From contig JAZQIO010000028.1 of assembly GCA_045541135.1 (NCBI GenBank), positions 32,897 to 96,896 of the forward strand: a stretch of 64,000 nucleotides of DNA. The letters are read 5' to 3'. Position 1 is the first letter of the stretch; each line of letters starts with the position of its first letter. This DNA is from Clostridia bacterium (GTDB taxonomy: Bacteria > Bacillota > Clostridia > Monoglobales > Firm-18). A program made the position numbers and the translations under genes. A model generated the notes under the pieces. It searched no databases, was not told the DNA's origin, and saw only the letters and a list, made by a program, of their open reading frames with translations. Shown here in pieces: positions 15,206 to 38,098 of the stretch.

Positions 15206-16140
15206 TGGCTGATATAATTGCTACAAGAGAAGCTTACGGCAAAGCTTTAGCTGAATTTGGAGATACATATGATATGGTTGTTATGGATGCCGACCTTTCC
15301 GGTTCAACCAAAACAGGTGTTTTTGCAAAGAAATTTCCTGAAAGATTTATAAACTGCGGTATTGCAGAAGGTAATATGATGACTACTGCAGCAGGTATCG
15401 CTACAACCGGTAAGACAGTTTTTGCTTCTACATTCGCTGTTTTTGCATCCGGTCGTGCTTTTGAACAGATCAGAAACTCAATTTGCTACCCTAATCTTAA
15501 TGTTAAAATAGGTGCAACTCATGCGGGTTTATCTGTTGGCGAAGATGGTGCATCACATCAGGCAATTGCCGATATGGCAGTTATGCGTGCGTTGCCAAAT
15601 ATGATTGTTCTTAATCCTGCAGATGCTGTTGAAACAAAATGCGCTATTAAAGCAGCTATTGAATACAATGGTCCTGTATATATAAGACTTGGCAGACTTG
15701 GTGTGCCTGTGATTTTTGATGAAGCAACATACAAGTTTGAAATTGGTAAAGGTCAGCTTATCAACGATGGTGACGATATTACTATTATTGCAACAGGTCT
15801 TATGACAACAGAAGCTATAAAAGCTGTTGAAACATTAAAAGCTGAGGGTGTTAATGCAAGACTTATAAATATTCATACAATAAAGCCTATTGATAGGGAT
15901 ATTATTATAAAAGCAGCAAAGGAAACAGGACATATTGTTACTGTTGAAGAACATTCCGTTATCGGTGGTCTTGGTAGCGCAGTTGCTGAAGTTCTGGCAG
16001 AAGAATATCCTTGCAAAGTGACTCGAATTGGCGTTCAGGATGTGTTTGGTCAGTCAGGTAAGCCTTATGAACTTTTGGATATGTATGGTCTTACAGACAA
16101 AAATATTGTTGCAAAAGTAAAAGAAATTCTAGGTAAATAA
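15205..16140 (+). CDS. tkt: Transketolase, C-terminal (pyrimidine-binding) subunit
   Basis: Contains FINCGIAEGNMM and THAGLSVGEDGASHQ. The start overlaps the stop of the N-terminal subunit (ATG within TAATG). Confidence 0.95.
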   Translation: MADIIATREAYGKALAEFGDTYDMVVMDADLSGSTKTGVFAKKFPERFINCGIAEGNMMTTAAGIATTGKTVFASTFAVFASGRAFEQIRNSICYPNLNVKIGATHAGLSVGEDGASHQAIADMAVMRALPNMIVLNPADAVETKCAIKAAIEYNGPVYIRLGRLGVPVIFDEATYKFEIGKGQLINDGDDITIIATGLMTTEAIKAVETLKAEGVNARLINIHTIKPIDRDIIIKAAKETGHIVTVEEHSVIGGLGSAVAEVLAEEYPCKVTRIGVQDVFGQSGKPYELLDMYGLTDKNIVAKVKEILGK

Positions 16141-16263: not shown

Positions 16264-17535
16264 ATGGATTTGTTTGAAGAATTATTGTCAAAACACAGTC
16301 CTTTGGTAGAAAGATACGTAAAATTCAGATTGCCGGAAGTCGCAGATAAAGAGGATGTAATTCAGGAAATTTACTTTTCTGCATTTAAAAATTTTGGACA
16401 GCTTAAAAATATTAATTCTTTTAAACCGTGGATTATAGGTATTGCAATAAACAAATGCAATGACTGGTACAAAGCTAATGCAAAAAAGTCAGAAATACCT
16501 ATTGATTCGGTGGAAGAAAGCAAACTGATTTATGGACGTTATGGTTTAACAGAATCAAATGAAGTTAAAGAAACACTTGATTTGATGAAGGATAAATATA
16601 GGCAAATACTTGATTTGTATTTTATAAAAGAAATGCAACAGAAGGATATTTCTAAATATTTGTCAATACCATTGGGTACTGTTAAAAGCCGTATTTATAA
16701 GGCAAAACATGAATTTAAAAAAATATATCCGCATCATCCTGACAGTAAGAAGGGAGAAATAAATATGAAAATTATTCCTGGAATTTTACCGGAGTATAAA
16801 ATTGAATATTCGGATAAAAAACCGTTTAATGTAAAATGGGAAGAGCTTATGGGATGGTTTCTCGTACCCAAGCTTGGTGAAAAAATAACCTGGGGAATGT
16901 ATGATATTCCATCACGAAAATGCAATCATATTTATGATATGAAGGTTACCGGCAAGGCAATGGTGCACGGAATAGAGGGAGTAGAGCTTACTGCACGTGA
17001 GGCTAATTATTCCGAAAAAAAGGAGGCAATATACCGCACTTTTGTAGCACAGCTTACAGATACACATTGCCGTTATCTTGCAACTATTCGAAATGACGGA
17101 GATGTAAGAAATTATATAACCTTTCTTGATGAGGAAGCATTTATGCCTAACTGGGGGTTTGGTGAAGATAATTGCGGCAATGAAACTAATCTGAAAGTTA
17201 AAGGAGATATTAAAAGAGAAGGGAATATTGTTACAAGTACTGACAAAGGTTTTCTTCTTGATATTGTGGGAAGATATACAGTTACAATTAACGGCAAAAG
17301 TTATGATACCGTATGTGTTATGGATATTGAAACATATAACTGCGGAGTTGTTTCTGAACAATTTCTTGACAAAAACGGTAAAACAATTCTATGGAGACGT
17401 TTCAATCGTGATGACTGGGCATTTAAAACATATAATAAAAAATGGAGCGAAATGATGCCCGGCAATGATAGATTGATTGTAAACGGAACAACTTATGTAC
17501 AATGGTACGATTGTATAACGGATTATATTTTATAA
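16264..17535 (+). CDS. ECF-type sigma-70 family factor (about 160 aa) fused to a soluble C-terminal domain of about 255 aa with unknown function
   Basis: Region 2 is DVIQEIYFSAFKNFGQL...FKPWIIGIAINKCNDWYK. Region 4 is YRQILDLYFIKEMQQKDISKYLSIPLGTVKSRIYKAKHEF. The remaining 255 aa are Trp/Cys-rich with no TM segment, and I do not recognise the domain. Confidence 0.8.
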   Translation: MDLFEELLSKHSPLVERYVKFRLPEVADKEDVIQEIYFSAFKNFGQLKNINSFKPWIIGIAINKCNDWYKANAKKSEIPIDSVEESKLIYGRYGLTESNEVKETLDLMKDKYRQILDLYFIKEMQQKDISKYLSIPLGTVKSRIYKAKHEFKKIYPHHPDSKKGEINMKIIPGILPEYKIEYSDKKPFNVKWEELMGWFLVPKLGEKITWGMYDIPSRKCNHIYDMKVTGKAMVHGIEGVELTAREANYSEKKEAIYRTFVAQLTDTHCRYLATIRNDGDVRNYITFLDEEAFMPNWGFGEDNCGNETNLKVKGDIKREGNIVTSTDKGFLLDIVGRYTVTINGKSYDTVCVMDIETYNCGVVSEQFLDKNGKTILWRRFNRDDWAFKTYNKKWSEMMPGNDRLIVNGTTYVQWYDCITDYIL

Positions 17536-24230: not shown

Positions 24231-24935
24231 TTGGAAGAAATAAGATTACAGAAATTTATGGCAGACTGCGGTGTGGCATCACGCAGAAAATGTGAAGAAA
24301 TAATACTTCAGGGAAAGGTTAAGGTTAACGGTATTAAGGTTACTGAACTTGGTACTAAGGTAACAGAAGATGATGAAGTATCTGTTGATGGAAAGGTTAT
24401 AAAAAAGGTATTTAAAAAAGTTTATATCGCAATGAATAAACCTGTAGGATTTATTACATCTGTTTCAGATGAATTTAACAGACCTACAGTAATAAATCTT
24501 GTTGAGGACGAAATACACACAAGGGTATATCCTGTAGGACGACTGGATTTTGATACCGAAGGGTTACTTATTATGACCAATGACGGAGAGCTTACCTATA
24601 AGCTTACACATCCTAAACATCTGGTGTATAAAACCTATGTTGCAACTCTTAATGATGTACCTCATCCAAAGGATATTGAAAAGCTTAAAAAAGGTGTGTT
24701 TATAGATGGAAGAAAGACTCAACCGCCCAAAGTAAATTGGTTAAGAGATAATATAGTAGAAATTTCAATATTTGAGGGCAGAAACCGTCAGGTAAGAAAA
24801 ATGTTTGAAGCAATTGGCTATGAAGTGGTAAATCTTCAAAGAATTGCTGTGGGAAATTTAACATTGGGAAATATCCCTTTAGGCAGGTGGAGACACCTTA
24901 GTAATGCGGAAATTAATTATCTTAAATCTTTATAA
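24231..24935 (+). CDS. rluB: RsuA/RluB-family rRNA pseudouridine synthase with N-terminal S4 domain
   Basis: S4 motif RLQKFMADCGVASRRKCEEII..GKVKVNG and catalytic GRLDFDTEGLL. TTG start 7 nt after AGGAGG. Confidence 0.88.
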   Translation: MEEIRLQKFMADCGVASRRKCEEIILQGKVKVNGIKVTELGTKVTEDDEVSVDGKVIKKVFKKVYIAMNKPVGFITSVSDEFNRPTVINLVEDEIHTRVYPVGRLDFDTEGLLIMTNDGELTYKLTHPKHLVYKTYVATLNDVPHPKDIEKLKKGVFIDGRKTQPPKVNWLRDNIVEISIFEGRNRQVRKMFEAIGYEVVNLQRIAVGNLTLGNIPLGRWRHLSNAEINYLKSL

Positions 24936-25012: not shown

Positions 25013-25041
25013 TTGAAGATAATTTAATTTTATAGTATAAT
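25013..25041 (+). promoter_or_regulatory. sigma-A promoter for the decarboxylase cluster
   Basis: TTGAAG (25013-25018), a 17-nt spacer, then TATAAT (25036-25041). Confidence 0.5.
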
Positions 25042-25074: not shown

Positions 25075-26568
25075 ATGAACAATATGGATAAGCTTGCTGA
25101 ATTACAGTCAAAACGTGCTTCAATTGAGGCTGCATGTGAAAGCGTTAATGGCAAAAATTCTGCAAGAGAACGAATAAAGCTTTTATTCGATGAAGGAAGT
25201 TTTGTTGAAATTAATGCATTTGTTACCGGTGAAGCTGCTGCAGAAGGCGTTGTTTCCGGATATGGTACAGTAAATGATAGACTTGTATATGCATATTCAC
25301 AGGACTACAGTTCAATTGGTGGTGCATTGGGTGGTGCTAATGCAAAGAAAATCACTTACACCTTGGATTTGGCTGCTAAGATGGGTGCTCCTGTTGTAAG
25401 TATTCTTGATTCAAAGGGTGCTAAAATTGCAGAAGGCATTGATGCTTTAGCTGCAATTGGAGAAATTTATGCAAAAAATACTGAACTTTCGGGCTTAGTA
25501 CCTCAGGTTTCAGTTGTTCTTGGCGACTGTGCAGGCGGCGCTGTTTACACACCGTCAATATCTGACTTTGTTTTTATGTCAGAAAAAAATGCAAATATGT
25601 ACATAAACAGCCCATCTGTTATTACAGGTGTTTCAGGTGAAGCTTGTACTGCTGATGAAGTAGGTTCTGCAAAAGCTTGTGCCTCAAACGGTACTGCTGA
25701 TTTTGTGTGTGCAACAGAGGAAGAATGCTTTGCAAATGTTAAAAAGCTTCTTGATTATTTGCCATCAAACAATCTTGAGGGAACTCCTGTAGAAATTCCT
25801 ACAGATGATATTAACAGAATTTCTGAAAATATTATTAATATGATTCCTGATAACGATGATGGATTTGATATTAAAAATATCATTAAAGAAGTTGCAGACA
25901 ATGCAGAACTTTTTGAAGTTTCATCGGAATATTCAAAAAATATGGTTACGGGTTTTGTTAAACTTAATGGTATGACTGTTGGTGTTGTTGCCAATAACTC
26001 TGCCGAATACAATGGCGATCTGTGCATAAATGCTGCTAAGAAAGCTTCAAAGTTTATCAATTTCTGTGATTCTTTCAATATTCCTGTTGTAACATTTGTT
26101 GATTGCGGCGGCTTTGCTGCATGCAAATATCAGGAAAACAATGGCCTTGCTGATGCTGCTGCTACGCTGTTAGCCACATATGCAAGTGTTACAATTCCAA
26201 AGGTAACTGTTGTTGTTCGTAAGGCTTATGGAAGTGCTTATCTTGCAATGGGCTCTAAAGTATGCGGTGCAGATATGGTATTTGCATATCCTACTGCTGA
26301 AATCGCAATTATGGCTCCTGAAGGTGCCGCAAACATTATGTACAATGAAGAAATTGCGGCTTCTGCTGATCCTGTTGCATGCAGAACACAGAAAATAGAT
26401 GAATACAAAAACGTTATTGCAGCTCCATATACTGCTGCATCAAAAGGATACATTGATGATGTTATTGAGCCTGACAGCACAAGACCTCGCCTTATCAGTG
26501 CTCTTGAAATGCTTTCTGCAAAAAGAGTTAACTCAATTGCTAAAAAGCATATCAATATGCCACTTTAA
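25075..26568 (+). CDS. mmdA: Acyl-CoA carboxyltransferase (methylmalonyl-CoA decarboxylase alpha / transcarboxylase 12S-like)
   Basis: 497 aa of the Carboxyl_trans family, with two crotonase-like halves. Its size matches MmdA/12S rather than GcdA (about 590 aa). Confidence 0.85.
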   Translation: MNNMDKLAELQSKRASIEAACESVNGKNSARERIKLLFDEGSFVEINAFVTGEAAAEGVVSGYGTVNDRLVYAYSQDYSSIGGALGGANAKKITYTLDLAAKMGAPVVSILDSKGAKIAEGIDALAAIGEIYAKNTELSGLVPQVSVVLGDCAGGAVYTPSISDFVFMSEKNANMYINSPSVITGVSGEACTADEVGSAKACASNGTADFVCATEEECFANVKKLLDYLPSNNLEGTPVEIPTDDINRISENIINMIPDNDDGFDIKNIIKEVADNAELFEVSSEYSKNMVTGFVKLNGMTVGVVANNSAEYNGDLCINAAKKASKFINFCDSFNIPVVTFVDCGGFAACKYQENNGLADAAATLLATYASVTIPKVTVVVRKAYGSAYLAMGSKVCGADMVFAYPTAEIAIMAPEGAANIMYNEEIAASADPVACRTQKIDEYKNVIAAPYTAASKGYIDDVIEPDSTRPRLISALEMLSAKRVNSIAKKHINMPL

Positions 26569-26587
26569 CAGATAAGGAAGTGATTTT

Positions 26588-26962
26588 ATGTCATTGTTAG
26601 ATAAATTAGGTCAGGGTGTTCCGATTGCCATAATCGGATATGTTATGGTTTTTGTTGTTTTGGCAATTCTTTGGGGGATCATTGAATTGATGCATATTAT
26701 TTTAACACCTAAAACATCAAAAAACAAAAAGAAGGAAGAAGTAAAGGTTACACAGAATTCACTTATTGAGAAAGAAACAGAAGCTGTTGTCGAAACCGAA
26801 CAGGTTGATGAAGGTGAATTGGTTGCGGTTTTGACTGCTGCTGTTGCTGCATCGCTTAACACTTCAACTTATAATTTAAAAATAAAATCTTTTAAACGCA
26901 TAGATACAAAAAATAATGCTTGGTCGAACGCATCAAGAAATGATGCAATTAATAAGTTTTAA
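26588..26962 (+). CDS. OadG/MmdD-family small membrane subunit of Na+-translocating decarboxylase
   Basis: 124 aa with a single N-terminal TM helix (IAIIGYVMVFVVLAILWGIIELM) and then an acidic linker. The position between the CT and BCCP genes fits this role. Confidence 0.7.
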   Translation: MSLLDKLGQGVPIAIIGYVMVFVVLAILWGIIELMHIILTPKTSKNKKKEEVKVTQNSLIEKETEAVVETEQVDEGELVAVLTAAVAASLNTSTYNLKIKSFKRIDTKNNAWSNASRNDAINKF

Positions 26963-26980
26963 TTTTGGAGGATTATAAAA

Positions 26981-27358
26981 ATGAGAAAATTTGTTATAAA
27001 TGTAAATGGTAAATCCTATGATGTAGAAGTAGAAGAAATAAGAGATGGCGTTGCAGTTGCAACACCTGTTGTTACAGCTCCTGTTGCTGCACCTGCACCA
27101 CAGACTGCTCCTGCTGCGTCTCCAAAGGCTACAGGTACAGCCGGTTCAGTAAAAGTTGAAGCACCTATGCCCGGTACTGTTCTTAAAATGAACGTTAAGG
27201 TTGGCGATACTGTTGCTGAAGGACAGGCTGTTGCTGTTCTTGAAGCTATGAAGATGGAAAACGATATTGTTGCACCAAGTGCCGGTACAGTTGCATCCGT
27301 AAACGTTTCTGTTGGTGATGCTGTAAACACAGGTGATGTACTTGTTACTCTTAACTAA
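26981..27358 (+). CDS. mmdC: Biotin carboxyl carrier protein (decarboxylase gamma / 1.3S-like subunit)
   Basis: Ala/Pro-rich linker (ATPVVTAPVAAPAPQTAPAASP) followed by a biotinyl domain with the EAMKMEN motif. Confidence 0.92.
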   Translation: MRKFVINVNGKSYDVEVEEIRDGVAVATPVVTAPVAAPAPQTAPAASPKATGTAGSVKVEAPMPGTVLKMNVKVGDTVAEGQAVAVLEAMKMENDIVAPSAGTVASVNVSVGDAVNTGDVLVTLN

Positions 27359-27391
27359 GTAGTAATTAAGTAAAATACTACTTAAGAAAGG

Positions 27392-28645
27392 GTGAAGATA
27401 TTGTTTAGTTTTTTGTTAGAAGGTATTGTTAAATTTTTTGAAAGTACAGGTATATACAAAATAATATCCGCCGCATCTAATCCTGATGTTGTATTCAAAT
27501 TGGGAAGTGTTGATATTGGTACAATCGTTATGATTGGTATTGCTTGTCTTTTGGTTTATCTTGCAATAGGTAAGGGTTTTGAACCATTGCTTTTGCTACC
27601 TATCGCTTTTGGTATGTTGCTTGCAAATATGCCCGGTGCAAATTTGCTACATAATGAATTATTTGTTGGTGACGGTACAAATCCTAATTTTGTTGTTGAT
27701 TACGGAGAAGTACTGAAAAATGGCGGTCTTTTAGATTTACTTTATATGGGCGTTAAACTTGGTATTTATCCATCGCTTATTTTCCTGGGTATTGGTACAA
27801 TGACAGACTTCAGTCCGCTTATTGCTAATCCCAAAAGCTTAATGCTTGGTGCTGCTGCACAGCTTGGTGTATTCGTAGCTTTCCTTGGCGCTTTGGTACT
27901 TGGTTTCTCAATTTATCAGGGCTTTGCTATCGGTATTATCGGCGGTGCTGACGGTCCTACAGCTATTTTGGTTACTAAATATACTGCTCCGGAATTATTG
28001 CCGGCTATTGCAATTGCGGCATATTCATATATGGCTTTGATTCCTATTATTCAGCCACCGATTATGAAATTGCTCACTACTAAAAAAGAACGTTCTGTTG
28101 TTATGAAGACATTACGTCCTGTTTCAAGAATTGAAAAGCTATTGTTCCCTATTATTGTTACAATAGTTGTTGCTTTGATTGTTCCTGATGCCGTTCCTTT
28201 GGTAGGTATGCTTATGCTTGGTAACCTGTTTAAGGAAAGTGGTGTTGCTGACAGACTTTCTAAAACTGCCCAGAATGAACTTATGAACATTGTTACAATT
28301 TTCCTTGGTGTTACAGTTGGTGCTACAGCTTCTGCAAGTACATTCCTAAGACCACAAACTTTATATGTAATTGTACTTGGACTTGTTGCTTTCTCGATAA
28401 GTACGAGCGGTGGCTTACTTGCCGGTAAGGTTATGTATATTCTCACAAAAGGTAAGATTAATCCGCTTATCGGTTCTGCAGGTGTATCTGCTGTTCCTAT
28501 GGCTGCACGTGTTGCGCAGAATGTTGGTCAGAAGGAAGTTCCTACCAACTATCTTTTGATGCATGCTATGGGACCAAATGTTGCAGGTGTTATAGGTTCT
28601 GCGGTTGCGGCAGGTGTATTCCTGACATTCTTTAAGATTTTATAA
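27392..28645 (+). CDS. oadB: Na+-translocating decarboxylase beta subunit (OadB/MmdB/GcdB family)
   Basis: Polytopic membrane protein of about 410 aa with OAD_beta-like blocks (GADGPTAI, GSAGVSAVPMAARV). The start is uncertain: GTG 27392 or TTG 27401. Confidence 0.88.
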   Translation: MKILFSFLLEGIVKFFESTGIYKIISAASNPDVVFKLGSVDIGTIVMIGIACLLVYLAIGKGFEPLLLLPIAFGMLLANMPGANLLHNELFVGDGTNPNFVVDYGEVLKNGGLLDLLYMGVKLGIYPSLIFLGIGTMTDFSPLIANPKSLMLGAAAQLGVFVAFLGALVLGFSIYQGFAIGIIGGADGPTAILVTKYTAPELLPAIAIAAYSYMALIPIIQPPIMKLLTTKKERSVVMKTLRPVSRIEKLLFPIIVTIVVALIVPDAVPLVGMLMLGNLFKESGVADRLSKTAQNELMNIVTIFLGVTVGATASASTFLRPQTLYVIVLGLVAFSISTSGGLLAGKVMYILTKGKINPLIGSAGVSAVPMAARVAQNVGQKEVPTNYLLMHAMGPNVAGVIGSAVAAGVFLTFFKIL

Positions 28646-28660
28646 TTGGAGGTAAAAGTA

Positions 28661-30058
28661 ATGAGTAAAGTAAAAATTACCGAAACGGTTTTAAGAGATG
28701 CTCATCAGTCACTTATTGCAACTCGTATGACAACTGACGAAATGTTGCCGATGATTGAGATGCTTGACGATATAGGTTATAATGCTTTGGAAGCATGGGG
28801 CGGTGCTACATTTGATTCATGCTTAAGATTTTTAAATGAAGACCCGTGGGAAAGACTAAGAAAAATTAAAGCTAAGGCAAAGAAGACACCTTTGCAGATG
28901 CTATTCAGAGGTCAGAATATTTTGGGTTACAGACATTATGCTGATGATGTTGTAGAATATTTTGTACAGAAGTGTGTTGCTAATGGTATTGATATTATCA
29001 GAATTTTTGATGCACTTAACGACATTAGAAACCTTGAAACAGCTATTAATGCTACAAAGAAGGAAAAAGGTCATGTTCAGGCTACTTTGTCTTATACAAT
29101 CAGCCCTGTACACAATAATGAATCCTTTGTAAAATTAGCAAAAGATTTGGAAAATATGGGTGCTGATTCTATCTGTATTAAAGATATGGCAGGTCTTTTA
29201 ACACCATATGTTGCTTATGATTTGGTTAAGGACATCAAATCTTCTGTTAAAATTCCGATTGAACTTCACACACACTATACAAGCGGTGTTGCTTCAATGA
29301 CATACTTAAAAGCTATTGAAGCAGGTGTAGATATAGTTGACTGTGCATTGTCACCAATGGCTCTTGGTACATCACAGCCACCTACAGAACCGTTGGTAGC
29401 TACTTTAGCTGGTACTGAATACGATACAGGTCTTTCACTTGACAAATTGTCTGAAATTTCAGAATATGTTAAGACTTTAAGAGATAAATATATCTCAAGC
29501 GGTCTTTTGGATACAAAACTTTTGGGTGTTGACATTAACACACTTAAGTATCAGGTTCCCGGCGGTATGCTTTCAAATCTTGTTTCTCAGCTAAAACAGC
29601 AGGGTAAGGAAGATAAGCTTGACGATGTTTTGAGAGAAGTTCCTGAAGTCAGAAAAGATTTTGGTTATCCTCCACTTGTAACACCTTCAAGCCAGATTGT
29701 CGGTACACAGGCTGTCCTTAACGTTCTTATGGGCGAAAGATACAAGATGGTTACCAAAGAATCAAAGGCTATCGTTAAGGGCGAATACGGTTCAACAACA
29801 GTTCCGATTGATCCGGAATTTGTGAAGAAAATTATCGGTGATGAAGAACCTATCACTTGTCGTCCTGCAGATTTAATTAAACCTGAGCTTGATAAACTAC
29901 GTGCTGAAATTGCTGAATATATTGAACAAGATGAAGACGTACTTTCATATGCGTTGTTTGATCAGGTTGCAGTTAAATTCTTCAAAGAAAGACAGGCTGC
30001 AAAATATAAGTTGGATCCGAATTTGGCTGATACAAAGGCTAAAACTCATCCATTTTAA
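28661..30058 (+). CDS. oadA: Oxaloacetate decarboxylase alpha / transcarboxylase 5S-like carboxyltransferase, lacking a biotinyl domain
   Basis: KITETVLRDAHQSL (HMGL-like TIM barrel) plus the PYC_OADA region. It ends at 465 aa with no AMKM motif. The ATG at 28661 lies 7 nt after GGAGG. Confidence 0.88.
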   Translation: MSKVKITETVLRDAHQSLIATRMTTDEMLPMIEMLDDIGYNALEAWGGATFDSCLRFLNEDPWERLRKIKAKAKKTPLQMLFRGQNILGYRHYADDVVEYFVQKCVANGIDIIRIFDALNDIRNLETAINATKKEKGHVQATLSYTISPVHNNESFVKLAKDLENMGADSICIKDMAGLLTPYVAYDLVKDIKSSVKIPIELHTHYTSGVASMTYLKAIEAGVDIVDCALSPMALGTSQPPTEPLVATLAGTEYDTGLSLDKLSEISEYVKTLRDKYISSGLLDTKLLGVDINTLKYQVPGGMLSNLVSQLKQQGKEDKLDDVLREVPEVRKDFGYPPLVTPSSQIVGTQAVLNVLMGERYKMVTKESKAIVKGEYGSTTVPIDPEFVKKIIGDEEPITCRPADLIKPELDKLRAEIAEYIEQDEDVLSYALFDQVAVKFFKERQAAKYKLDPNLADTKAKTHPF

Positions 30059-30076
30059 TATTTGATTATCTAAAAT

Positions 30077-30114
30077 ACGGTGTAATGACTTTGGCGTTCG
30101 TTACACCGTTTTTT
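30077..30114 (+). terminator. Rho-independent terminator after the decarboxylase cluster
   Basis: ACGGTGTAA (30077-30085), a 15-nt loop, TTACACCGT (30101-30109), then TTTTT. Confidence 0.75.
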
Positions 30115-30130
30115 GAGGAGAGATTTATCC

Positions 30131-31000
30131 ATGAGTAATACTGCTAATTTGTTGGAAAAGATTGAAAAAGCCTATCCGAAATTCAGTAAAGGTCAAAAAA
30201 AGATTGCTAATTATATATTAAAAAATTATGAAAAGGCTGCATTTATGACAGCGGCTTCACTTAGTGAAAATACAGGTGTGAGTTGTTCTACGGTTGTACG
30301 CTTTGCGGTGGAACTTGGTTATGACGGATATCCCCAGCTTCAAAAGGCGTTGCATGAAATGGTAAGAACAAAGCTTACTGCTGTACAACGTATGGAAGTA
30401 ACGTCCAATCGTATGGGTGATAAGGATGTTTTGTCTACTATACTGAATTATGACATTTTAAAAATCAAGCAAACACTTGAAGAAATAGACAAAGAAGCAT
30501 TCGAAGAAGCTGTAAGCACAATTGTAAATGCAAAGAAAATTTATATTTTAGGTGTAAGAAGTTCTTCGTCACTTGCCGGTTTTTTAGGATTTTACCTCAA
30601 TATCATATTTGATAATGTCAGACTTATAAATACAACAAGTGCAAGTGAAATTTTCGAACAAATTATGAAAATTGATGAAGATGATGTTGTAATTGGTATT
30701 AGTTTTCCCCGTTACTCTGCAAGAACCTTAAAGGCAATACAATATGCCAAAAACCAAAATGCTAAGGTTGTTGCAATTACAGACAGTGAAACTTCACCAC
30801 TTACAAAATATGCAAACAATACTTTGATTGCAAGAAGTGATATTGCATCTTTTGTGGATTCTTTGGTTGCACCTCTTAGTGTTATCAATGCACTCATTGT
30901 GGCACTTGGTATGATAAAAAAAGAAAATGTATACGACAGTTTTAACAAGCTTGAAAAAATTTGGGATGAATACAATGTATATGAAAAGGTTGATAAATAA
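30131..31000 (+). CDS. MurR/RpiR-family transcriptional regulator (HTH + SIS domain)
   Basis: N-terminal HTH_6 (AASLSENTGVSCSTVVRFAVELGYDGY) and a C-terminal SIS domain. ATG at 30131 after GAGGAG. Confidence 0.88.
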   Translation: MSNTANLLEKIEKAYPKFSKGQKKIANYILKNYEKAAFMTAASLSENTGVSCSTVVRFAVELGYDGYPQLQKALHEMVRTKLTAVQRMEVTSNRMGDKDVLSTILNYDILKIKQTLEEIDKEAFEEAVSTIVNAKKIYILGVRSSSSLAGFLGFYLNIIFDNVRLINTTSASEIFEQIMKIDEDDVVIGISFPRYSARTLKAIQYAKNQNAKVVAITDSETSPLTKYANNTLIARSDIASFVDSLVAPLSVINALIVALGMIKKENVYDSFNKLEKIWDEYNVYEKVDK

Positions 31001-32223
31001 TGAAAACTGATGTGGTTGTTATAGGTGGAGGCCCTGCCGGTTTATTTAGTGCAGCCATTGCCGCAAAAAACGGCAACAAAGTAATATTGATAGACAAAAA
31101 TGATGTTCTTGCAAGGAAATTAAGGATTACCGGAAAAGGAAGATGCAATGTTACAAATTCTGCTGATATTTCTGATTTTATTGGTATGGTATGCTCTAAT
31201 CCTAACTTTATGTACAGTGCATTTTATTCATTTACAAATGAAGATTTAATTAACTTCTTTGAAAATGCAGGTGTACCTCTTAAAGAAGAAAGAGGAGGCA
31301 GAATTTTTCCTGTTTCTGATTCTGCAAAAGATATTGCAAATGCGTTAATTAAATATGCCAAAGATAATGGCGTTGTTTTTATTAAAGATGCTGTTACAAA
31401 AGTTATGCAGGAAAATAACAGTATATGTGGTGTTTTAACCAAAACAGCTAAAAAAATTGATTGTAGCAGAGTTATTGTTGCAACCGGTGGTGCTTCATAT
31501 CCTCTTACAGGTTCAACCGGTGACGGTTATAAATTTGCAAAAGAACTTGGTCACACTGTTGTTACACCATATCCTTCTTTGATTCCTTTAGTGATACAGG
31601 AAGATTATGTAAAAGATTTACAGGGATTGTCACTAAAAAATGTTGCTGTAAAAGTAACCAAAGGGACAAAATGTGTATATGAAGACTTCGGTGAAATGAT
31701 TTTTACACACTACGGTTTATCCGGACCGGTTATTTTAAGTGCAAGTTCCAATTTGAAAAATATAGAAAACAGTGGGTATAAAATTTCCATTGATTTAAAA
31801 CCTGCACTTACATTTGAGCAGTTGGATAAAAGAATTCAGCGTGATTTTGAAAAAAATATAAATAAAAACTTTTCAAATTCACTTGATGAGCTTTTACCGA
31901 GCAAAATGATTGATACAATAATTAAACTTAGTGGGATAGACCCATACATTAAAGTGCATCAGATTAACAAGCAACAACGTACAGAACTTTGTAATTTGCT
32001 TAAGAATTTCACGTTAACCGTAACCGGGGTACGTCCAATTGAAGAAGCAATCATTACTCGCGGAGGAATCAGCACAAAAGAAATAAATCCATCTACAATG
32101 GAATCTAAAATAATCGAAGGTTTGTTTTTTTGCGGAGAAGTAATAGATGTAGATGCATACACGGGAGGCTTTAATTTACAAATAGCCTTCAGTACTGCCT
32201 ATCTTGCAGGTTCAAACGTATAA
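31000..32223 (+). CDS. HI0933/YhiN (BaiN-like) family FAD-dependent oxidoreductase
   Basis: DVVVIGGGPAGL dinucleotide fold, ITGKGRCNVTN and FCGEVIDVDAYTGGFNLQ are characteristic family blocks. Confidence 0.88.
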   Translation: MKTDVVVIGGGPAGLFSAAIAAKNGNKVILIDKNDVLARKLRITGKGRCNVTNSADISDFIGMVCSNPNFMYSAFYSFTNEDLINFFENAGVPLKEERGGRIFPVSDSAKDIANALIKYAKDNGVVFIKDAVTKVMQENNSICGVLTKTAKKIDCSRVIVATGGASYPLTGSTGDGYKFAKELGHTVVTPYPSLIPLVIQEDYVKDLQGLSLKNVAVKVTKGTKCVYEDFGEMIFTHYGLSGPVILSASSNLKNIENSGYKISIDLKPALTFEQLDKRIQRDFEKNINKNFSNSLDELLPSKMIDTIIKLSGIDPYIKVHQINKQQRTELCNLLKNFTLTVTGVRPIEEAIITRGGISTKEINPSTMESKIIEGLFFCGEVIDVDAYTGGFNLQIAFSTAYLAGSNV

Positions 32224-32262
32224 AATAATTTTTTTAAAATATGCTAATATCGGGGTGATATT

Positions 32263-32685
32263 ATGCGTAAAATTAAAATTTTTATTTCTTTACTGTTTGT
32301 ATTTGCATTTTTTGTTATGGTTATATCACAGATATTTTTAAAAAATGATTTTTTTAAAAATAAGCTTTCTGTATTGTATGAAATGGAATCCATGTATGTA
32401 TATTCCGAAAAAATGGAAAGTTGCGGATATGTTGTTATTGAAATATCTGCTCCGTCGGAAAATTTGTTTTTAATGCAAAACGGAGAAAAAATATTGAATT
32501 TGTCAAAAAAACAAGTAAAAATAAACGTTCAGGACAATTCTGTAATAGAAGTAGATGGACGCAAAAACGACGCGATTTGTAAAATAAAAATTACTGAAAT
32601 ATCGGATAATACAGAGGGTTTTTACGAAAAAGAAATTGAAGTAAAATCAAATATCGTAATTTTGGGCAGATTTTTTGTAAAATAG
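32263..32685 (+). CDS. Hypothetical membrane-anchored protein
   Basis: 140 aa with an N-terminal TM helix (IFISLLFVFAFFVMVISQIFL). I recognise no domain. Confidence 0.5.
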   Translation: MRKIKIFISLLFVFAFFVMVISQIFLKNDFFKNKLSVLYEMESMYVYSEKMESCGYVVIEISAPSENLFLMQNGEKILNLSKKQVKINVQDNSVIEVDGRKNDAICKIKITEISDNTEGFYEKEIEVKSNIVILGRFFVK

Positions 32686-32746
32686 TATTGTTAAATATTT
32701 GAAAATGTAGTATAATATTGTACAGTAATTGTTAGTAGGTGATTGA

Positions 32747-33430
32747 GTGAAGTATATTTCAATTGCAATTGATGGTCCTGCAGGTGCGGGAAAAAGCTCT
32801 ATTTCAAAAGAGCTGGCAAAAAAATTGAATTTTATATATGTTGATACCGGTGCAATCTACCGCTCCTTGGCATATATATCTTTAAAAAATAATTTAAATA
32901 CAAAAACTGATGTTGAAAAAATATCCGATTTAGCGAATAATTGTAAGATCGATTTAAAATATATAAACAACGTTCAACATATATTTGTTGATGGCTGTGA
33001 TGTTACCGAATTTATCAGAACACCTGAGGTTTCAAAAGGTGCATCCGATGTTTCGTCAATTCCGAAAGTTCGAGAAGCTTTGTTATCAATTCAAAGAGAC
33101 ATTGCGGATAATAATAATGTACTTATGGATGGAAGGGATATCGGAACTGTTGTTTTGCCTCGGGCAACCGTCAAAATTTTCCTTACAGCATCAATTGACG
33201 AACGTTCTAAGAGAAGATACAAGGAAATGCTTGAAAAAGGTGTAGAGTGCAATTTTGAAGATATTAAAGCAGATATTGCATACAGAGATAATCAGGATTC
33301 AAACAGATCCGTTGCTCCATTAAAGCCGGCTGAGGATTCTGTTATATTTGATAACAGCAATTATAATTTTGAAGAATCTGTTGATTTTTTGTACAAACTT
33401 ATAAAGGAGAAAGTTCAAGTTGTTATATAG
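32747..33430 (+). CDS. cmk: Cytidylate kinase
   Basis: IAIDGPAGAGKSS P-loop, then VDTGAIYR. GTG start. Confidence 0.95.
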   Translation: MKYISIAIDGPAGAGKSSISKELAKKLNFIYVDTGAIYRSLAYISLKNNLNTKTDVEKISDLANNCKIDLKYINNVQHIFVDGCDVTEFIRTPEVSKGASDVSSIPKVREALLSIQRDIADNNNVLMDGRDIGTVVLPRATVKIFLTASIDERSKRRYKEMLEKGVECNFEDIKADIAYRDNQDSNRSVAPLKPAEDSVIFDNSNYNFEESVDFLYKLIKEKVQVVI

Positions 33431-34043
33431 CATATCGGCCTTTTTGGTAAAGTTATATTATAAAATTATATATTTTGCAAAAGTTGAAGGAATTGAAAAT
33501 GTTCCAAAATCCGGCGGAATGATAATGTGCGGTAATCATAGCTCATTTAACGACCCAATTATTATTGCAGCCTTTTCTCCTAAAAGATTGAAATTTCTTG
33601 CTAAGGCAGAATTATTCAAAAACAAATTGTTTGCATGGTTTCTACGTAGTTTGGGATGTGTTCCGGTAGACCGTAGCGGCGGTGACCTGAAAGCAATGAG
33701 AACGTGTATAAAAATTCTTAAAGAAGATAATCCTCTTTTGCTTTTTCCGGAAGGAACAAGAAGCTGTATACATATAGATGATGTTAAACCCGGAGCTTTA
33801 CTTTTTGCGACTAAAGCAGAAGTTCCTATTATTCCTGTCGGAGTAAGCAACCTGAAGCCATTCAGACGTGCAAAAGTGACATTTGGCAAACCTATATTCT
33901 ATAGTGATTACTATGGTAAAAAGATTTCAAGCGAAGAATATAAAAAACTCACAAATGCTCTTATGTACGAAATTTACAACCTTGTTGATAATAAATGTTG
34001 CTATTACGATGAAATAAAAGCGAGTGTTGAAAATGAAAATTAA
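33420..34043 (+). CDS. plsC: 1-acyl-sn-glycerol-3-phosphate acyltransferase
   Basis: Acyltransferase motifs NHSSFND (HX4D) and FPEGTRS. Confidence 0.9.
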   Translation: MLYSISAFLVKLYYKIIYFAKVEGIENVPKSGGMIMCGNHSSFNDPIIIAAFSPKRLKFLAKAELFKNKLFAWFLRSLGCVPVDRSGGDLKAMRTCIKILKEDNPLLLFPEGTRSCIHIDDVKPGALLFATKAEVPIIPVGVSNLKPFRRAKVTFGKPIFYSDYYGKKISSEEYKKLTNALMYEIYNLVDNKCCYYDEIKASVENEN

Positions 34044-36009
34044 TCTTGCTAAATATGCCGGCTTTTGTTTCGGTGTGAAAAGAGCTATGGATATTGTTAT
34101 TGAAACTGCTGAAAAAAGCAGTGGAAAAATATACACCTTAGGTCCTCTTATTCACAACGAGCAGGTTGTTAAGTATTTGGAAAACAAGAATGTCTATGCA
34201 ATCGATTCAATTGATGAAATTCCTGATAATAGCAATGTTATAATAAGAACTCACGGAGTACCAAAACTTTATTACGAGAAATTAGAACAAAAAAACTGTA
34301 AGTTTATTGATGTTACATGTCCTTTTGTGAAAAAAATCCATAATATTGTTCACAAAAATCACATTGAAGGAAAACAGATAATAATTGTCGGAGATGCTAA
34401 TCATCCGGAGGTTATCGGTATAAACGGATGGTGTGATAATTCAGCACATATAATATCATGCGTGGAAGATTTTGGTAAAATTAACATAGAAAAACCTATT
34501 TGTATGGTAGTTCAGACTACTTTTTCACTAAAAGTTTGGAATAAAATAAAGAAATTTGTAAAAACATCTTGCCAAACAGTACAAATATTTGATACAATAT
34601 GTAGTGCGACGGAAGATAGACAGGACGAAGCTGAAAAAATGGCGGCTTCTGTTGATACTGTTATTGTTATTGGTGGCAAACACAGCTCCAATACAAAAAA
34701 ATTAGTTGATATTTGTAAAAGCCATTGTGCTGATACGTATCATATAGAAACGGTTTCCGAGTTACCTAATGAGACTTGGAATAACCGTAACATCGGTGTT
34801 ACGGCAGGAGCTTCAACACCGGAATGGATAATTAAGGAGGTCATTAGTAAAATGTCAGAAGAAAAAGTAATGGAAGTAACAGACGAAATCAGCTTTGCTG
34901 AAGAATTGGAGAAATCATTGGTTAGCCTAAAAACAGGCGACATCGTAAAAGGTGTTGTTATAGGCATCACACCAACTGAGGTTTATGTGGACCTTGGTTC
35001 AAAGGCTGATGGTATTATACCGGTTGGAGAGCTTACAGAGGATCCGTCTGTTTCACCTGAAGATATAGTAAAGGTGGGCGATGAAATCGACGTATTCGTT
35101 GTTAGAGTAAACGATGTCGAAGGTACAATCAAGCTTTCTAAAAAGAAGCTTGACATTATTGCAGGTCAGAAGAAATTTGAAGCTGCAGTTGAAACAAAGG
35201 AAATTCTTGAAGGTAAAGTTGTAGAAGCTGTTAACGGTGGTATTATCGTTATTTCTAACGGCACAAGAGTATTTGTTCCTGCAAGACAGGCTGCTTCTAA
35301 ATTTGTTCAGGATTTGGAAACATTAGTTGGTACAACAGTTCAGTTCAGACTTATTGATTTTAATCCAAGAAGAAGAAAAATCGTTGGCTCAATCAAGTCA
35401 GTTACAGATGAAATTGCTGCAAAGGCTCTTGATGAATTCTGGGCATCTGCTGAAGTTGGTAAGGAATACACAGGTACAGTTAAATCACTAACAAATTTTG
35501 GTGCTTTCGTAGATATCGGCGGCGTTGACGGTTTGGTTCACATTTCCGAACTTTCGTGGGGCAGAGTTAAACACCCATCAGATGTTTTGAAGGTTGGAGA
35601 TACAGTTAAGGTTTACATCCTTGCTCTTGATAAAGAAAAGAACAAGATATCTCTTGGTTATAAGAGAGCTGAAGACAATCCTTGGGAGATTATCAAAACA
35701 AAGATTGCTCTTGATGATGTTATTAAAGTTAAAATTGTAAGAATTGTTTCCTTCGGTGCATTTGCTGAAATCATTCCTAACGTTGATGGTTTGATTCACA
35801 TTTCACAGATTGCTAACAAGCACATCGATACAGTTTCAAGTGTACTTAAAGTTGGCGACGAAGTTGATGTAAAGGTTACTGAATTTGACGTTGAAAATAA
35901 GAAAATCAGCCTTAGCATGAGAGCTTTGTTGGAACCTGAAAAGGTTGAAGAACCAACAGAAGAACCTGCTGCTGAAGAAGCTGTTGAAGAAACTCCAACA
36001 GAGGAATAA
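34033..36009 (+). CDS. ispH: Bifunctional fusion: 4-hydroxy-3-methylbut-2-enyl diphosphate reductase (IspH/LytB) + ribosomal protein S1-like (four S1 domains)
   Basis: The N-terminal 275 aa carry IspH Cys motifs (YAGFCFGVKRA, DVTCPFV, DTICSAT). The C-terminal 380 aa carry four S1 repeats (e.g. GTVKSLTNFGAFVDIGGVDGLVHISE). The ATG at 34033 (MKINLAKYAGFC) is preferred over the ORF-track GTG at 34024. Confidence 0.92.
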   Translation: MKINLAKYAGFCFGVKRAMDIVIETAEKSSGKIYTLGPLIHNEQVVKYLENKNVYAIDSIDEIPDNSNVIIRTHGVPKLYYEKLEQKNCKFIDVTCPFVKKIHNIVHKNHIEGKQIIIVGDANHPEVIGINGWCDNSAHIISCVEDFGKINIEKPICMVVQTTFSLKVWNKIKKFVKTSCQTVQIFDTICSATEDRQDEAEKMAASVDTVIVIGGKHSSNTKKLVDICKSHCADTYHIETVSELPNETWNNRNIGVTAGASTPEWIIKEVISKMSEEKVMEVTDEISFAEELEKSLVSLKTGDIVKGVVIGITPTEVYVDLGSKADGIIPVGELTEDPSVSPEDIVKVGDEIDVFVVRVNDVEGTIKLSKKKLDIIAGQKKFEAAVETKEILEGKVVEAVNGGIIVISNGTRVFVPARQAASKFVQDLETLVGTTVQFRLIDFNPRRRKIVGSIKSVTDEIAAKALDEFWASAEVGKEYTGTVKSLTNFGAFVDIGGVDGLVHISELSWGRVKHPSDVLKVGDTVKVYILALDKEKNKISLGYKRAEDNPWEIIKTKIALDDVIKVKIVRIVSFGAFAEIIPNVDGLIHISQIANKHIDTVSSVLKVGDEVDVKVTEFDVENKKISLSMRALLEPEKVEEPTEEPAAEEAVEETPTEE

Positions 36010-36054: not shown

Positions 36055-36074
36055 ATAATGCGAGGGTTTTGTTT

Positions 36075-37085
36075 ATGGAAAATCTAATTGAAATGTGTTC
36101 ATTAAATTCTGTTTCGGGAAATGAATTTAAAATGTCAGAATTTATGAAACAATGTACAGAATCTTTTTGTGATGATGTAATAACAGATAGTCTGGGAAAT
36201 GTTATTGCAAATATAAACAATAATTCCGATGTTACTGTTGCATTAGAAGCTCATATAGATAATATCGGTTTAGTTGTAAAAGAAATTGATGATAAGGGAT
36301 TTATAAAATTTGTATGTTCAGGCGGTGTGGACTCGAGTATACTTCCTACGGCAGAAGTCGTTGTACATGGTAAAAAAGACTTGTTTGGAATAATTGGTGC
36401 AAAACCACCGCATCTTCAGACTAAAGACGATGTTGGCAAAAAAAATGGTGTGGAAGATATGTACATTGATTGCGGATATGACTTTAAAAAAATAACAGAA
36501 TATGTTGCAATTGGTGATACAATAACACTTTTATCGAAATATGACGATTTAAAAGGCGATTTTTTAACTTCTGGTTCGTTAGATAACAGAATTGGCTGTT
36601 ATATTGTAACAGAGTGCTTAAAACGTCTTAAAACGCAAAAATTGAGCTATAATTTGTGTGGTGTGTATTCTGTTCAGGAGGAAGTAGGTTGCAGAGGGGC
36701 AAAAAAAGCCGTTTCTGTGGCAAAACCTGATATTGCAATAATTGTAGATGTTACATTTGGAATATCACCTTATACAGACGACGAACACGGTTTTTTGGTT
36801 GGTGATGGAATTACCATAGCAGTAGGACCAAACCTTGACAGAAAACTTACAAATAAATTTATGGAATCATGTGATATAAATAATATACCATACAAAAAAG
36901 AGGTTTGCAGTGATCATACGGGTACTGATGCATGGCCCATACAGATTGCTTGTGAAGGTATACGGTGCATTTTGATATCTGCACCAATAAAATATATGCA
37001 TACTACTGTTGAGATTGCAAATAAAAAAGACATCAATACCGCAATTAATGCAATATGTTTAGCATTGGAAGGAGGTATCTTATAA
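36075..37085 (+). CDS. M42-family metallo-aminopeptidase (TET/FrvX/CelM-like), paralogue 1
   Basis: Metal and catalytic blocks are intact: EAHIDNIG, SLDNRIGC, VQEEVGCRGA, IIVDVT, KYMHT. The ATG at 36075 lies 8 nt after GAGGG. Confidence 0.88.
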   Translation: MENLIEMCSLNSVSGNEFKMSEFMKQCTESFCDDVITDSLGNVIANINNNSDVTVALEAHIDNIGLVVKEIDDKGFIKFVCSGGVDSSILPTAEVVVHGKKDLFGIIGAKPPHLQTKDDVGKKNGVEDMYIDCGYDFKKITEYVAIGDTITLLSKYDDLKGDFLTSGSLDNRIGCYIVTECLKRLKTQKLSYNLCGVYSVQEEVGCRGAKKAVSVAKPDIAIIVDVTFGISPYTDDEHGFLVGDGITIAVGPNLDRKLTNKFMESCDINNIPYKKEVCSDHTGTDAWPIQIACEGIRCILISAPIKYMHTTVEIANKKDINTAINAICLALEGGIL

Positions 37086-38098
37086 TGCTTCAGAAACTTT
37101 CTAATGCTTTTGGCCCTTCGGGATGTGAGGATGAAGTTCGTGATATTATAAAAATTGAAATGGAAAAATACTGTGATGAAATTTATGAAGACTGTATAGG
37201 AAATCTTATTTGTCATAAAAAAGGAGAGCTAATTAACAATAAAAGTATTATGTTAACAGCACATATGGATGAAGTTGGTTTTATAATAAGTTATGTTACT
37301 AATGACGGGTATTTCAAATTTCAGACTGTAGGTGGAATTGACCCAAACGTATTGATTTCCAAAAAAGTAGTTATTGGTGATAATAGAGTTTGCGGTGTAA
37401 TAGGTACTAAACCAATACATCAGAATAAAGATAGTAATTCCGTATTAAAAATTTCAGATTTGTATATAGACATTGGTGCCACAACAAAAGAAGATGCTTT
37501 AAAATATGTTAATTTAGGAGACTATGCTTGTTTTGACAGTAGCTATATTGAATTTGGTGACGGATTTGTAAAAGCAAAAGCACTTGATGACCGTGTAGGA
37601 TGCTATGCTTTAATAAATATAGCAAAAAGAAAAACCAAAGCAGATATTTATTATGTATTTGCAGTACAGGAAGAAGTCGGACACAGAGGAGCAATAATAG
37701 CTTCCAAAAAAATTAATCCTGCATTTGCAATAGTGTTGGAGGGTACAACCTGTTCAGATGTTCCCGGAACAGACGAGTTTGGATTTTCAACACATATTGG
37801 TAAAGGTGCTGCACTTTCTATTCGTGATGGCGGATGCTATTCGGATGTTGAACTTACACGTGAAATAATTGATATTGCAAATCAAAACAATATTGAATGT
37901 CAGTATAAACAAACAACATTAGGCGGTAATGATGCTTCTGCAGTACAGCTGTCTGACAATGGCGTTAAGGTAGCTGCAATATCCGTGCCGTGCAGATATA
38001 TACACTCTCAGTCTAATGTAGCAAAATTAAGTGATATTGAATCTATGGAAGAAATACTATATACTTTTATTGAAAGTAAGGTGAAAAACAATGATTGA
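37085..38098 (+). CDS. M42-family metallo-aminopeptidase, paralogue 2
   Basis: Blocks are intact: TAHMDEVGF, ALDDRVGC, VQEEVGHRGA, RYIHS. The ATG at 37085 overlaps the stop of paralogue 1 (TAATG) and lies 9 nt after GGAGG. Confidence 0.9.
   Translation: MLQKLSNAFGPSGCEDEVRDIIKIEMEKYCDEIYEDCIGNLICHKKGELINNKSIMLTAHMDEVGFIISYVTNDGYFKFQTVGGIDPNVLISKKVVIGDNRVCGVIGTKPIHQNKDSNSVLKISDLYIDIGATTKEDALKYVNLGDYACFDSSYIEFGDGFVKAKALDDRVGCYALINIAKRKTKADIYYVFAVQEEVGHRGAIIASKKINPAFAIVLEGTTCSDVPGTDEFGFSTHIGKGAALSIRDGGCYSDVELTREIIDIANQNNIECQYKQTTLGGNDASAVQLSDNGVKVAAISVPCRYIHSQSNVAKLSDIESMEEILYTFIESKVKNND

Follow-up and report, generated by a model that had tools for sequence, protein, structure and literature searches.

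The closest relatives in the literature of the locus analyzed here are the four-gene operons of C. thermocellum (Cthe_0699-0701, Clo1313_1523-1526) and Caldicellulosiruptor (Athe_1316-1319, B5X54_RS07175-07190). The locus itself is an operon of five consecutive, co-directional genes at positions 25075-30058 on the + strand of a 64-kb stretch of DNA from a member of the Clostridia (contig JAZQIO010000028.1; the whole stretch of 64,000 nucleotides is hereafter called the window). In order, the genes encode an acyl-CoA carboxyltransferase (CT), an OadG/MmdD-like protein, a biotin carrier, the membrane pump subunit OadB, and an OadA-like CT. The published operons have the same order and composition minus OadB, in the same neighborhood. 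Without OadB they cannot pump Na+, and in one OadB-less relative (locus L010) the G-like protein is also anchor-less.

The oxaloacetate decarboxylase pump OadGAB of Klebsiella, Vibrio, and Salmonella is matched in the window by the OadB residues, an OadG-like anchor, the residues of an OadA-type CT, and the association and biotinyl domains, all of which are present. The window operon differs, however, in that the alpha subunit is split into two genes with OadB between them, that an extra acyl-CoA CT of the 12S/PCC-beta type comes first, and that the cluster lies in a housekeeping block, unlinked to genes for citrate lyase or citrate transport. A pump variant with an extra subunit in Enterococcus faecalis is mentioned in a passage of one review (PMC8100219). 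The first four genes also follow the order of methylmalonyl-CoA decarboxylase, MmdABCD(E), of Veillonella parvula and Propionigenium modestum (CT, gamma/delta-like subunit, carrier, OadB-type pump), but the mutase-linked loci compared here are without an OadA-like CT, and the window proteins score below the MmdA, MmdC, and MmdD cut-offs. As for the separate carrier, the E. faecalis variant is said to combine a biotin-less OadA with one.

Like the window operon, the transcarboxylase of Propionibacterium (12S/5S/1.3S) has two CTs of the same two superfamilies and one small separate carrier, but it is soluble and has no OadB or OadG, whereas OadB and an OadG-like anchor are encoded in the operon. 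Moreover, the window CT is 44% identical to 12S and remodeled at conserved sites, and the OadA-like protein scores below the 5S equivalog NF008984 (608.8 bits, cut-off 827). The Propionibacterium enzyme is of relaxed specificity and also takes acetyl-CoA (PMC8085960), and a fused transcarboxylase of Entamoeba and Mastigamoeba converts oxaloacetate and acetyl-CoA to malonyl-CoA and pyruvate in an anaerobe without conventional malonyl-CoA synthesis (PMC8136499). The chemistry and physiological logic of the latter are those proposed below, but the Entamoeba enzyme is eukaryotic, is fused into one polypeptide, and lacks a membrane pump. Both enzymes are precedents for oxaloacetate:acetyl-CoA transcarboxylation. 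The two-subunit pyruvate carboxylase (PycA/PycB) is different again, since the flanks of the window cluster and of related loci are without biotin carboxylase and the carrier is separate, not fused to PycB. No biochemical or enzymatic characterization of a five-gene or four-gene cluster was found in the literature; the operon is a biochemically uncharacterized variant of known biotin-dependent decarboxylase/transcarboxylase machinery, and its acyl-CoA CT belongs to a monophyletic short subfamily.

The reading that we put forward, with somewhat less than even confidence, is that the operon encodes a Na+-pumping oxaloacetate decarboxylase with a split alpha subunit, from which carboxybiotin would also be passed to an acyl-CoA, probably acetyl-CoA. 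The oxaloacetate-pump part alone is considerably more likely. In the proposed mechanism, the OadA-like CT would move CO2 from oxaloacetate to the biotin of the carrier, releasing pyruvate. OadB could then decarboxylate the carboxybiotin and export Na+, thereby conserving energy, and together with phosphoenolpyruvate (PEP) carboxykinase this outlet would give a PEP-oxaloacetate-pyruvate route. Alternatively, the acyl-CoA CT could hand the CO2 to an acyl-CoA, the likeliest case being the conversion of acetyl-CoA to malonyl-CoA for fatty-acid synthesis, without ATP. The OadG-like product of the second gene would be the anchor, and that of the first gene a second, acyl-CoA-specific CT attached to the pump. 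All steps would be reversible in principle, with the pump driven backwards by a Na+ gradient or the acyl-CoA product decarboxylated. What we infer is that the parts assemble physically, that they share the carrier, which acyl-CoA is used, and which way the flux runs.

The probable oxaloacetate decarboxylase parts and their operon

Families were assigned by Pfam and NCBIfam profile scores, judged against the curated cut-offs. The six Pfam families for which a preliminary description of the window had suggested a check were all matched in the expected order (Table 1). The last protein scored 815.7 bits against NF008985, oxaloacetate decarboxylase subunit alpha (a 465-position profile with a cut-off of 718), and 758 bits against PRK09282 (cut-off 402), and among solved structures it matched the CT of V. 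cholerae OadA (2nx9, 530 bits), PycB (5ks8, 531), and 5S (1rqb, 483). In the alignment to 2nx9, positions D17, K178, H207, and H209 of V. cholerae OadA, which we take to be the metal ligands and the catalytic Lys, have conserved counterparts in D13, K174, H203, and H205 of the 465-aa protein.

The domains that this protein lacks seem to be encoded two genes upstream. The carrier consists of an N-terminal segment resembling an association domain, an Ala/Pro linker, and a biotinyl domain, which is the only one detected by Pfam scans in the window. In profile alignments, residues 4-121 of the carrier cover positions 475-582 of TIGR01108 (OadA), and residues 3-124 cover positions 481-594 of PRK14040. 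Because these are the last 110 or so positions of full-length OadA profiles, the carrier would supply the association domain, linker, and biotinyl domain missing from the 465-aa protein, and the alpha subunit is best described as split into two genes rather than truncated.

OadB exceeded the cut-off of TIGR01109 (494 bits, cut-off 190.6) and matched Salmonella OadB (6iva) with 388 bits. Mutagenesis has identified the OadB residues that are important for Na+ binding and decarboxylation (PMC7274780), and all ten of those considered in the Salmonella/Klebsiella protein (E40, D203, Y229, R304, N311, N373, G377, S382, N412, and S419) are kept in the window, as E64, D187, Y213, R288, N295, N357, G361, S366, N396, and S403. 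The OadG-like protein, at 42.5 bits, is above the TIGR01195 cut-off of 36.05, and one N-terminal hydrophobic helix (residues ~12-40) is visible in its sequence, along with a conserved C-terminal segment; its last 80 residues align with the anchor-less homolog of the OadB-less locus L010 (36% identity, E 2e-07). Each of the four parts that make up an oxaloacetate decarboxylase pump is therefore represented by a sequence that looks functional. In comparisons with the canonical five-gene loci, OadB of the window is 70-73% identical and the OadA-like CT 65-81% (74-81% without L012), so that neither stands out as divergent.

The layout was as the preliminary description had it: one operon with two different CTs, one carrier, one OadB, and one OadG-like protein, at the same coordinates, an arrangement that both the family assignments and the spacing confirm. 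The gaps between the genes are 19, 18, 33, and 15 nt, so that an internal promoter or terminator would not fit. The OadA-like gene starts at ATG 28661, although the program-made list of open reading frames (ORFs) places its start at TTG 28646; its ribosome-binding site, GGAGG at 28649-28653, begins 4 nt past the stop codon of OadB, and for this reason the gene is not likely to be transcribed separately. From this spacing, the five genes can be taken as one transcription unit with one carrier. That the two CTs share this carrier and one Na+ pump, an idea already raised in the preliminary description, stands as the natural reading of such a unit.

Of the two signals proposed for the ends of the unit, the terminator was borne out, as the hairpin is strong and is followed by a U-run. 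The promoter fared less well as a consensus match, since promoter-like sites are not enriched in the window (30 found in a consensus scan, 28 expected from shuffles), but the block from the hexamers through the ATG is conserved in L001 (GCA_045545235.1), a 90%-identical relative, and the sequence farther upstream diverges. A gene of the RpiR family directly follows the cluster in L001, L002, and L085-L087, and lies 1-2 genes farther downstream in L012, L084, and L088. By this conserved adjacency only, the RpiR-type neighbor is a candidate regulator.

All five genes are under purifying selection, with ratios of nonsynonymous to synonymous substitution (dN/dS) of 0.04-0.17 relative to L001, including 0.059 for OadB and 0.040 for the OadA-like CT. 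It was also observed that dS itself is lower in the cluster genes (0.58-0.90) than in the flanking rluB, rpiR, HI0933, cmk, and plsC (1.15-1.79; 24231-24935 and 30131-34043), which could reflect a codon-usage constraint from high expression or a more recent exchange of the cluster.

Table 1. Features of the five-gene operon and its immediate borders (positions in the window)
Feature	Position	Strand	Description
Promoter-like -35/-10 pair	25013-25041	+	TTGAAG-17-TATAAT, 10/12 consensus matches; 5' of CT gene
CT gene	25075-26568	+	497 aa; PF01039 Carboxyl_trans, E 2.7e-135
OadG/MmdD-like gene	26588-26962	+	124 aa; PF04277 OAD_gamma, E 1.6e-16
Biotin carrier gene	26981-27358	+	125 aa; PF00364 Biotin_lipoyl, E 9.7e-22; motif EAMKMEN
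OadB gene	27392-28645	+	417 aa; PF03977 OAD_beta, E 6.9e-156
OadA-like CT gene	28661-30058	+	465 aa; PF00682 HMGL-like + PF02436 PYC_OADA; no biotinyl domain
Intrinsic-terminator hairpin and U-run	about 30071-30115	+	RNA fold -18.9 kcal/mol, z = -3.5 vs shuffles; then UUUUUU
RpiR-family regulator (HTH_6 + SIS)	30131-31000	+	PF01418 + PF01380; directly downstream of operon

Relatives in the Clostridia, with and without OadB

Relatives were gathered by homology, and 88 loci were examined in all. The contig collection held no exact match to the window CT, and in a scan of the genome collection the best identity among the matches listed was 53%. The same five-gene order was found in at least 15 other loci of Clostridia, a recurrence that argues against a chance arrangement. 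These include the close relatives L001 and L002; Ca. Roslinia caecavium, Ructibacterium gallinarum DSM 107454, Monoglobus, Oscillospiraceae, and other Clostridia metagenome-assembled genomes (MAGs), represented by L003, L004, L006, L007, L011, and L012; and Petroclostridium sp. X23, a 2.39-Mb genome, a human-associated MAG, and P. xylanilyticum, represented by L083-L086 and L088. Wherever flanks were available, the cluster lies between scpA-scpB-ytfJ-dacB-rluB on one side and rpiR-HI0933-cmk-plsC-ispH on the other. Far from being a one-off, the arrangement is a housekeeping operon that is widespread in Clostridia and conserved in position, and this fixed position points to a core operon inherited vertically rather than to a mobile catabolic island. 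Because the carriers include the cultured Petroclostridium xylanilyticum, Petroclostridium sp. X23, and R. gallinarum DSM 107454, direct testing is feasible. Other sequence records with the cluster, besides that of L001, are GCA_902473755.1, CP124862.1, and GCA_002252565.1. In several relatives, a small ORF of ~105-135 aa with no Pfam match stands between rluB and the CT gene (L002, 9533-9847; L084, 9443-9850; L085/L086, 7624-7941; L087, 7508-7837); it is absent from this place in the window and L001.

At the same chromosomal position, loci L010 and L087 have the CT, G-like, carrier, and OadA-like CT genes without OadB. With no pump and no biotin carboxylase in such an operon, transcarboxylation between the two CTs would be the sole complete catalytic cycle, and the two CTs would thus be partners. 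The G-like protein of L010 (9579-9851) has lost the N-terminal membrane helix and kept the conserved C-terminal ~45 residues, which suggests that the C-terminal segment is an assembly element and that the helix is needed only when OadB is present.

The composition of L010 and L087 agrees with the published gene lists for C. bescii (CT, hypothetical, carrier, "oxaloacetate decarboxylase") and C. thermocellum (Clo1313_1523-1526). Genes for spermidine synthase and diaminopimelate decarboxylase are close to the C. thermocellum cluster, and the five-gene clusters of Petroclostridium adjoin the same kinds of gene, which supports positional orthology between the two. Published readings of these operons conflict, since both an oxaloacetate decarboxylase (PMC3561251) and a malonyl-CoA-forming transcarboxylase (PMC5414155, PMC7071700) have been proposed. 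In C. thermocellum and C. bescii, the OadB-less operons have been modeled as malonyl-CoA synthesis, and the CT of an operon of this type has been detected in the membrane fraction. In C. bescii, the operon carries a FapR site and becomes derepressed when fapR is deleted, and it was described as a unit of malonyl-CoA biosynthesis (PMC7071700). Taken together, and by analogy with these apparent equivalents, the published work points to malonyl-CoA formation or plain oxaloacetate decarboxylation, and not to propionate metabolism.

Several points nevertheless weigh against extending this to the window operon as we propose. The link to malonyl-CoA comes from distant relatives, and orthology with the operons of C. 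thermocellum and C. bescii was inferred from gene lists and neighboring locus tags, not from sequences; in a second homolog search, made with a Petroclostridium CT, the best 120 matches were all metagenome or MAG proteins at least 79% identical, and neither C. thermocellum nor Caldicellulosiruptor was among them. No FapR operator (TTAGTACCWGGTACTAA, up to 3 mismatches) was found in the window, and the best FapR-like 17-mer within 260 nt upstream of 14 related clusters had 6-8 mismatches, which lends FapR no support. In C. thermocellum, according to one paper (PMC5414155), oxaloacetate decarboxylase activity went undetected; this fits the absence of OadB there and says nothing direct about the window operon. 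Finally, the sequence of the window CT does not resolve its substrate. At the position of PccB D422, the window has Leu, as in 12S and most Mmd-type enzymes, whereas the canonical five-gene CTs have Ile, and in view of the heavy remodeling near the region of oxyanion hole 2 the substrate may be different from both acetyl-CoA and propionyl-CoA.

The acyl-CoA carboxyltransferase and alternative readings of the operon

The preliminary description had allowed for a methylmalonyl-CoA decarboxylase as one of two enzymes assembled on the shared carrier, and this part of it did not hold up well. The best NCBIfam match of the window CT is indeed mmdA (TIGR01117), but at 569.2 bits it is far under the cut-off of 998.8, as are the carrier against MmdC (NF047903; 98.5 bits, cut-off 200) and the gamma-like protein against MmdD (NF047902; 22.6 bits, cut-off 150). 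In 8 of the 88 loci (L009, L014, L016, L018, L023, L025, L029, and L035), genes for a CoA-transferase, methylmalonyl-CoA mutase, its B12-binding subunit, MeaB, and a glyoxalase-fold epimerase lie directly 5' of the CT gene, with the neighbor families confirmed by Pfam on L025. An OadA-like gene was found in none of these eight, and among the loci examined no five-gene locus had a mutase, B12 subunit, MeaB, epimerase, or CoA-transferase beside the cluster. Likewise, Pfam scans of the ORFs found no mutase, epimerase, MeaB, CoA-transferase, biotin carboxylase, fab, or citrate lyase gene in the window, in agreement with the earlier remark that mutase and epimerase genes are missing there. In neighbor-joining trees, no Mmd-type CT fell inside the smallest clade of five-gene CTs in 164 of the 200 bootstraps, which is moderate support. 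Two four-gene Mmd-like loci with no adjacent mutase genes, those of Sedimentibacter and a relative (L013 and L015), have a FlK-type, fluoroacetyl-CoA-specific-like thioesterase directly after OadB (11588-11989 in L015).

A methylmalonyl-CoA or propionyl-CoA substrate for the window CT is accordingly improbable, although it is not without support: besides the mmdA match and the 44% identity to 12S, the window CT has Leu at the position of PccB D422, as do 12S and most mutase-linked CTs, and public names for its relatives include "methylmalonyl-CoA decarboxylase alpha" and "methylmalonyl-CoA carboxyltransferase". To the scores and the missing pathway genes must be added, on the other side, that the cluster lies in a housekeeping block of many saccharolytic Clostridia, and that the CT has lost 40 of 151 positions kept by the 12S, Mmd, and PCC enzymes. 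The most likely role is ATP-free synthesis of an acyl-CoA, probably malonyl-CoA, and not propionate fermentation. Overall similarity is no guide here, because the CTs of both classes are about 50% identical to that of the window (51-56% for other five-gene CTs, 46-53% for mutase-linked CTs). The position of PccB D422 was also tried as a substrate predictor and rejected as ambiguous, since Leu is shared by the window lineage, 12S, and most Mmd-type CTs, and Ile by the canonical five-gene CTs and T. maritima 1vrg. Glutaconyl-CoA decarboxylase was rejected as well, because the window CT scored only 110-117 bits against the GcdA structures 1pix and 3gf3.

That the 497-aa protein is a 12S/MmdA-like CT, as first described, is correct at the level of the superfamily (12S/PCC-beta/MmdA, PF01039); its best solved relatives are 1vrg (468 bits) and 12S (1on3, 427), and its scores against enzymes of the PCC-beta/12S type range from 420 to 468. 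It is not, however, an ordinary 12S or MmdA, but belongs to a strongly remodeled short subfamily. The short CTs (492-497 aa) were monophyletic in 200 of 200 bootstraps and are nested within the five-gene clade, whose canonical CTs are mutually 62-91% identical, a level of conservation close to that of OadB and the OadA-like CT. The reference for comparison was a set of 151 alignment columns with conservation of at least 95% among 85 other CTs (PCC-beta, 12S, Mmd-type, and archaeal). Of these near-invariant columns, 55 are changed in one or more of the sequences from the window, L001, and L002, as opposed to 1-10 in control clades, and 40 are lost across the 22 members of the window CT lineage, with several of the changed sites variable within it. 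From the canonical CTs to the window lineage, DSGGARIQEG becomes DSKGAKIAEG, PGFLPG..QEHGGIIRHGAK becomes GGFAACKYQENNGLADAAAT, and KAYGGAY becomes KAYGSAY; GGIIRHGAK is also altered, and two loops are deleted. The Ser of KAYGSAY, present in 21 of the 22 lineage members, is the first residue of oxyanion hole 2 (PccB G419).

Such changes bring up the possibility that the operon encodes simply an oxaloacetate decarboxylase Na+ pump, and that the divergent CT has ceased to be a carboxyltransferase and serves as a scaffold or regulatory subunit. The number of near-invariant columns changed (including the Gly to Ser change in hole 2, GGIIRHGAK, and PGFLPG), the variation of several of these sites within the lineage, and the much better conservation of the OadA-like CT and OadB are all in its favor. 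Even so, we consider it very unlikely. The dN/dS of the CT relative to L001 is 0.068, about as low as that of OadB, indicating strong purifying selection, and on the same ground a decaying CT gene was rejected. Oxyanion hole 1 is intact (AGG, G154-G155), as judged against the holes of ScPccB (G182-G183 and G419-A420). Because hole 2 makes its contacts through backbone amides, and because this position is Ala in MCC, the Ser may be compatible with activity. Lastly, L087 carries a short CT, together with the carrier and the OadA-like CT, but no OadB, and would have no catalytic cycle unless the short CT were active, which argues that the short CT is still catalytic. Altered properties or specificity are therefore favored over loss of function, and the remodeled short CT can be seen as a natural experiment on which "invariant" carboxyltransferase residues are truly needed.

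Another reading with little chance of being right is that an unlinked ATP-dependent biotin carboxylase charges the carrier, in which case the CTs would be those of an acetyl-CoA carboxylase and of a two-subunit-type pyruvate carboxylase, and OadB a side outlet. The OadA-like protein does score as well against PycB (5ks8 and PRK09282) as against OadA, and some sources name the CT relatives "acetyl-CoA carboxylase carboxyltransferase component" or "acyl-CoA carboxylase subunit beta". However, there is no biotin carboxylase gene in the window or in the flanks of the five-gene loci, and the co-operonic OadB and OadG point to decarboxylase chemistry. In addition, C. thermocellum, with its apparently equivalent OadB-less cluster, has no recognizable biotin carboxylase, and model builders borrowed carbamoyl-phosphate synthase in its place (PMC2852388). 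A pump working mainly in reverse is just as unlikely: all the parts needed for a Na+ gradient to drive carboxylation of biotin by OadB, and for the CTs to make malonyl-CoA and/or oxaloacetate without ATP, are present and intact, and the oxaloacetate and methylmalonyl-CoA decarboxylase pumps are reportedly reversible, carboxylating pyruvate and acetyl-CoA, but the OadB-less variants at the same position show that the two-CT pair works without a pump.

If the shared-carrier model that we prefer is true, many gut and cellulolytic Clostridia make malonyl-CoA without ATP, and would also gain a Na+ gradient from the PEP-oxaloacetate-pyruvate route, which matters at very small energy margins. A bolder and rather doubtful extension is that, in a large clade of Clostridia, ATP-dependent acetyl-CoA carboxylase has been replaced by a three-way "carboxybiotin hub", with the oxaloacetate CT, the acyl-CoA CT, and the Na+ pump served by one swinging carrier. 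Malonyl-CoA would then be paid for by oxaloacetate or the Na+ gradient, surplus carboxybiotin would be turned into ion-motive force, and the CT of the window lineage would have been rebuilt around the biotin/acyl site for a new acceptor specificity. Proof of the ATP-free malonyl-CoA role, or of a new specificity for the short CT, would raise the interest of the system. On the practical side, CT relatives are abundant in metagenomes and are named inconsistently as methylmalonyl-CoA decarboxylase alpha, methylmalonyl-CoA carboxyltransferase, acetyl-CoA carboxylase CT, or acyl-CoA carboxylase beta. Genes of the mmdA type are used as markers of propionate production, and five-gene-type CTs could be miscounted as propionate-pathway genes.

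Other genes in the window

According to the Pfam scans, the genes upstream of the operon are ffh, rimM, trmD, leuS, cysS, a split transketolase, a zinc-uptake operon, an EamA transporter, and an RluB-type pseudouridine synthase. Downstream are the RpiR/SIS regulator, an HI0933-type flavoprotein, cmk, a PlsC-type acyltransferase, and an ispH-S1 fusion, followed farther on by peptidases, polA, ftsZ, murA, and others.

The ispH-S1 fusion (34024-36009, + strand) is a 661-aa ORF in which an IspH/LytB domain is joined to four S1 RNA-binding repeats, and the fusion also occurs in L001, L002, L084, and L087. It is followed by three tandem paralogs of M42-family aminopeptidases (36069-39026, + strand; 338, 347, and 311 aa), the third of which matches the family much more weakly (69 bits vs 254-290). 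Then, on the - strand, a tyrosine recombinase of the phage-integrase family (39910-40875) adjoins a heavy-metal P-type ATPase with an HMA domain (41354-43468). A 140-aa ORF with no Pfam match (32263-32685, + strand; family F22) is found at the same position in L001 and L002.

On the upstream side, the transketolase (14366-16140, + strand) is split into two genes, one for the N-terminal thiamine pyrophosphate-binding part (279 aa) and one for the pyrimidine-binding and C-terminal part (311 aa). The 423-aa protein encoded at 16264-17535 (+ strand) has sigma-70 regions 2 and 4 confined to its first ~150 residues, and the other ~270 residues are without a Pfam match. A homologous ORF of 423 aa (family F31) is located just after the five-gene cluster in the Monoglobus locus L007.

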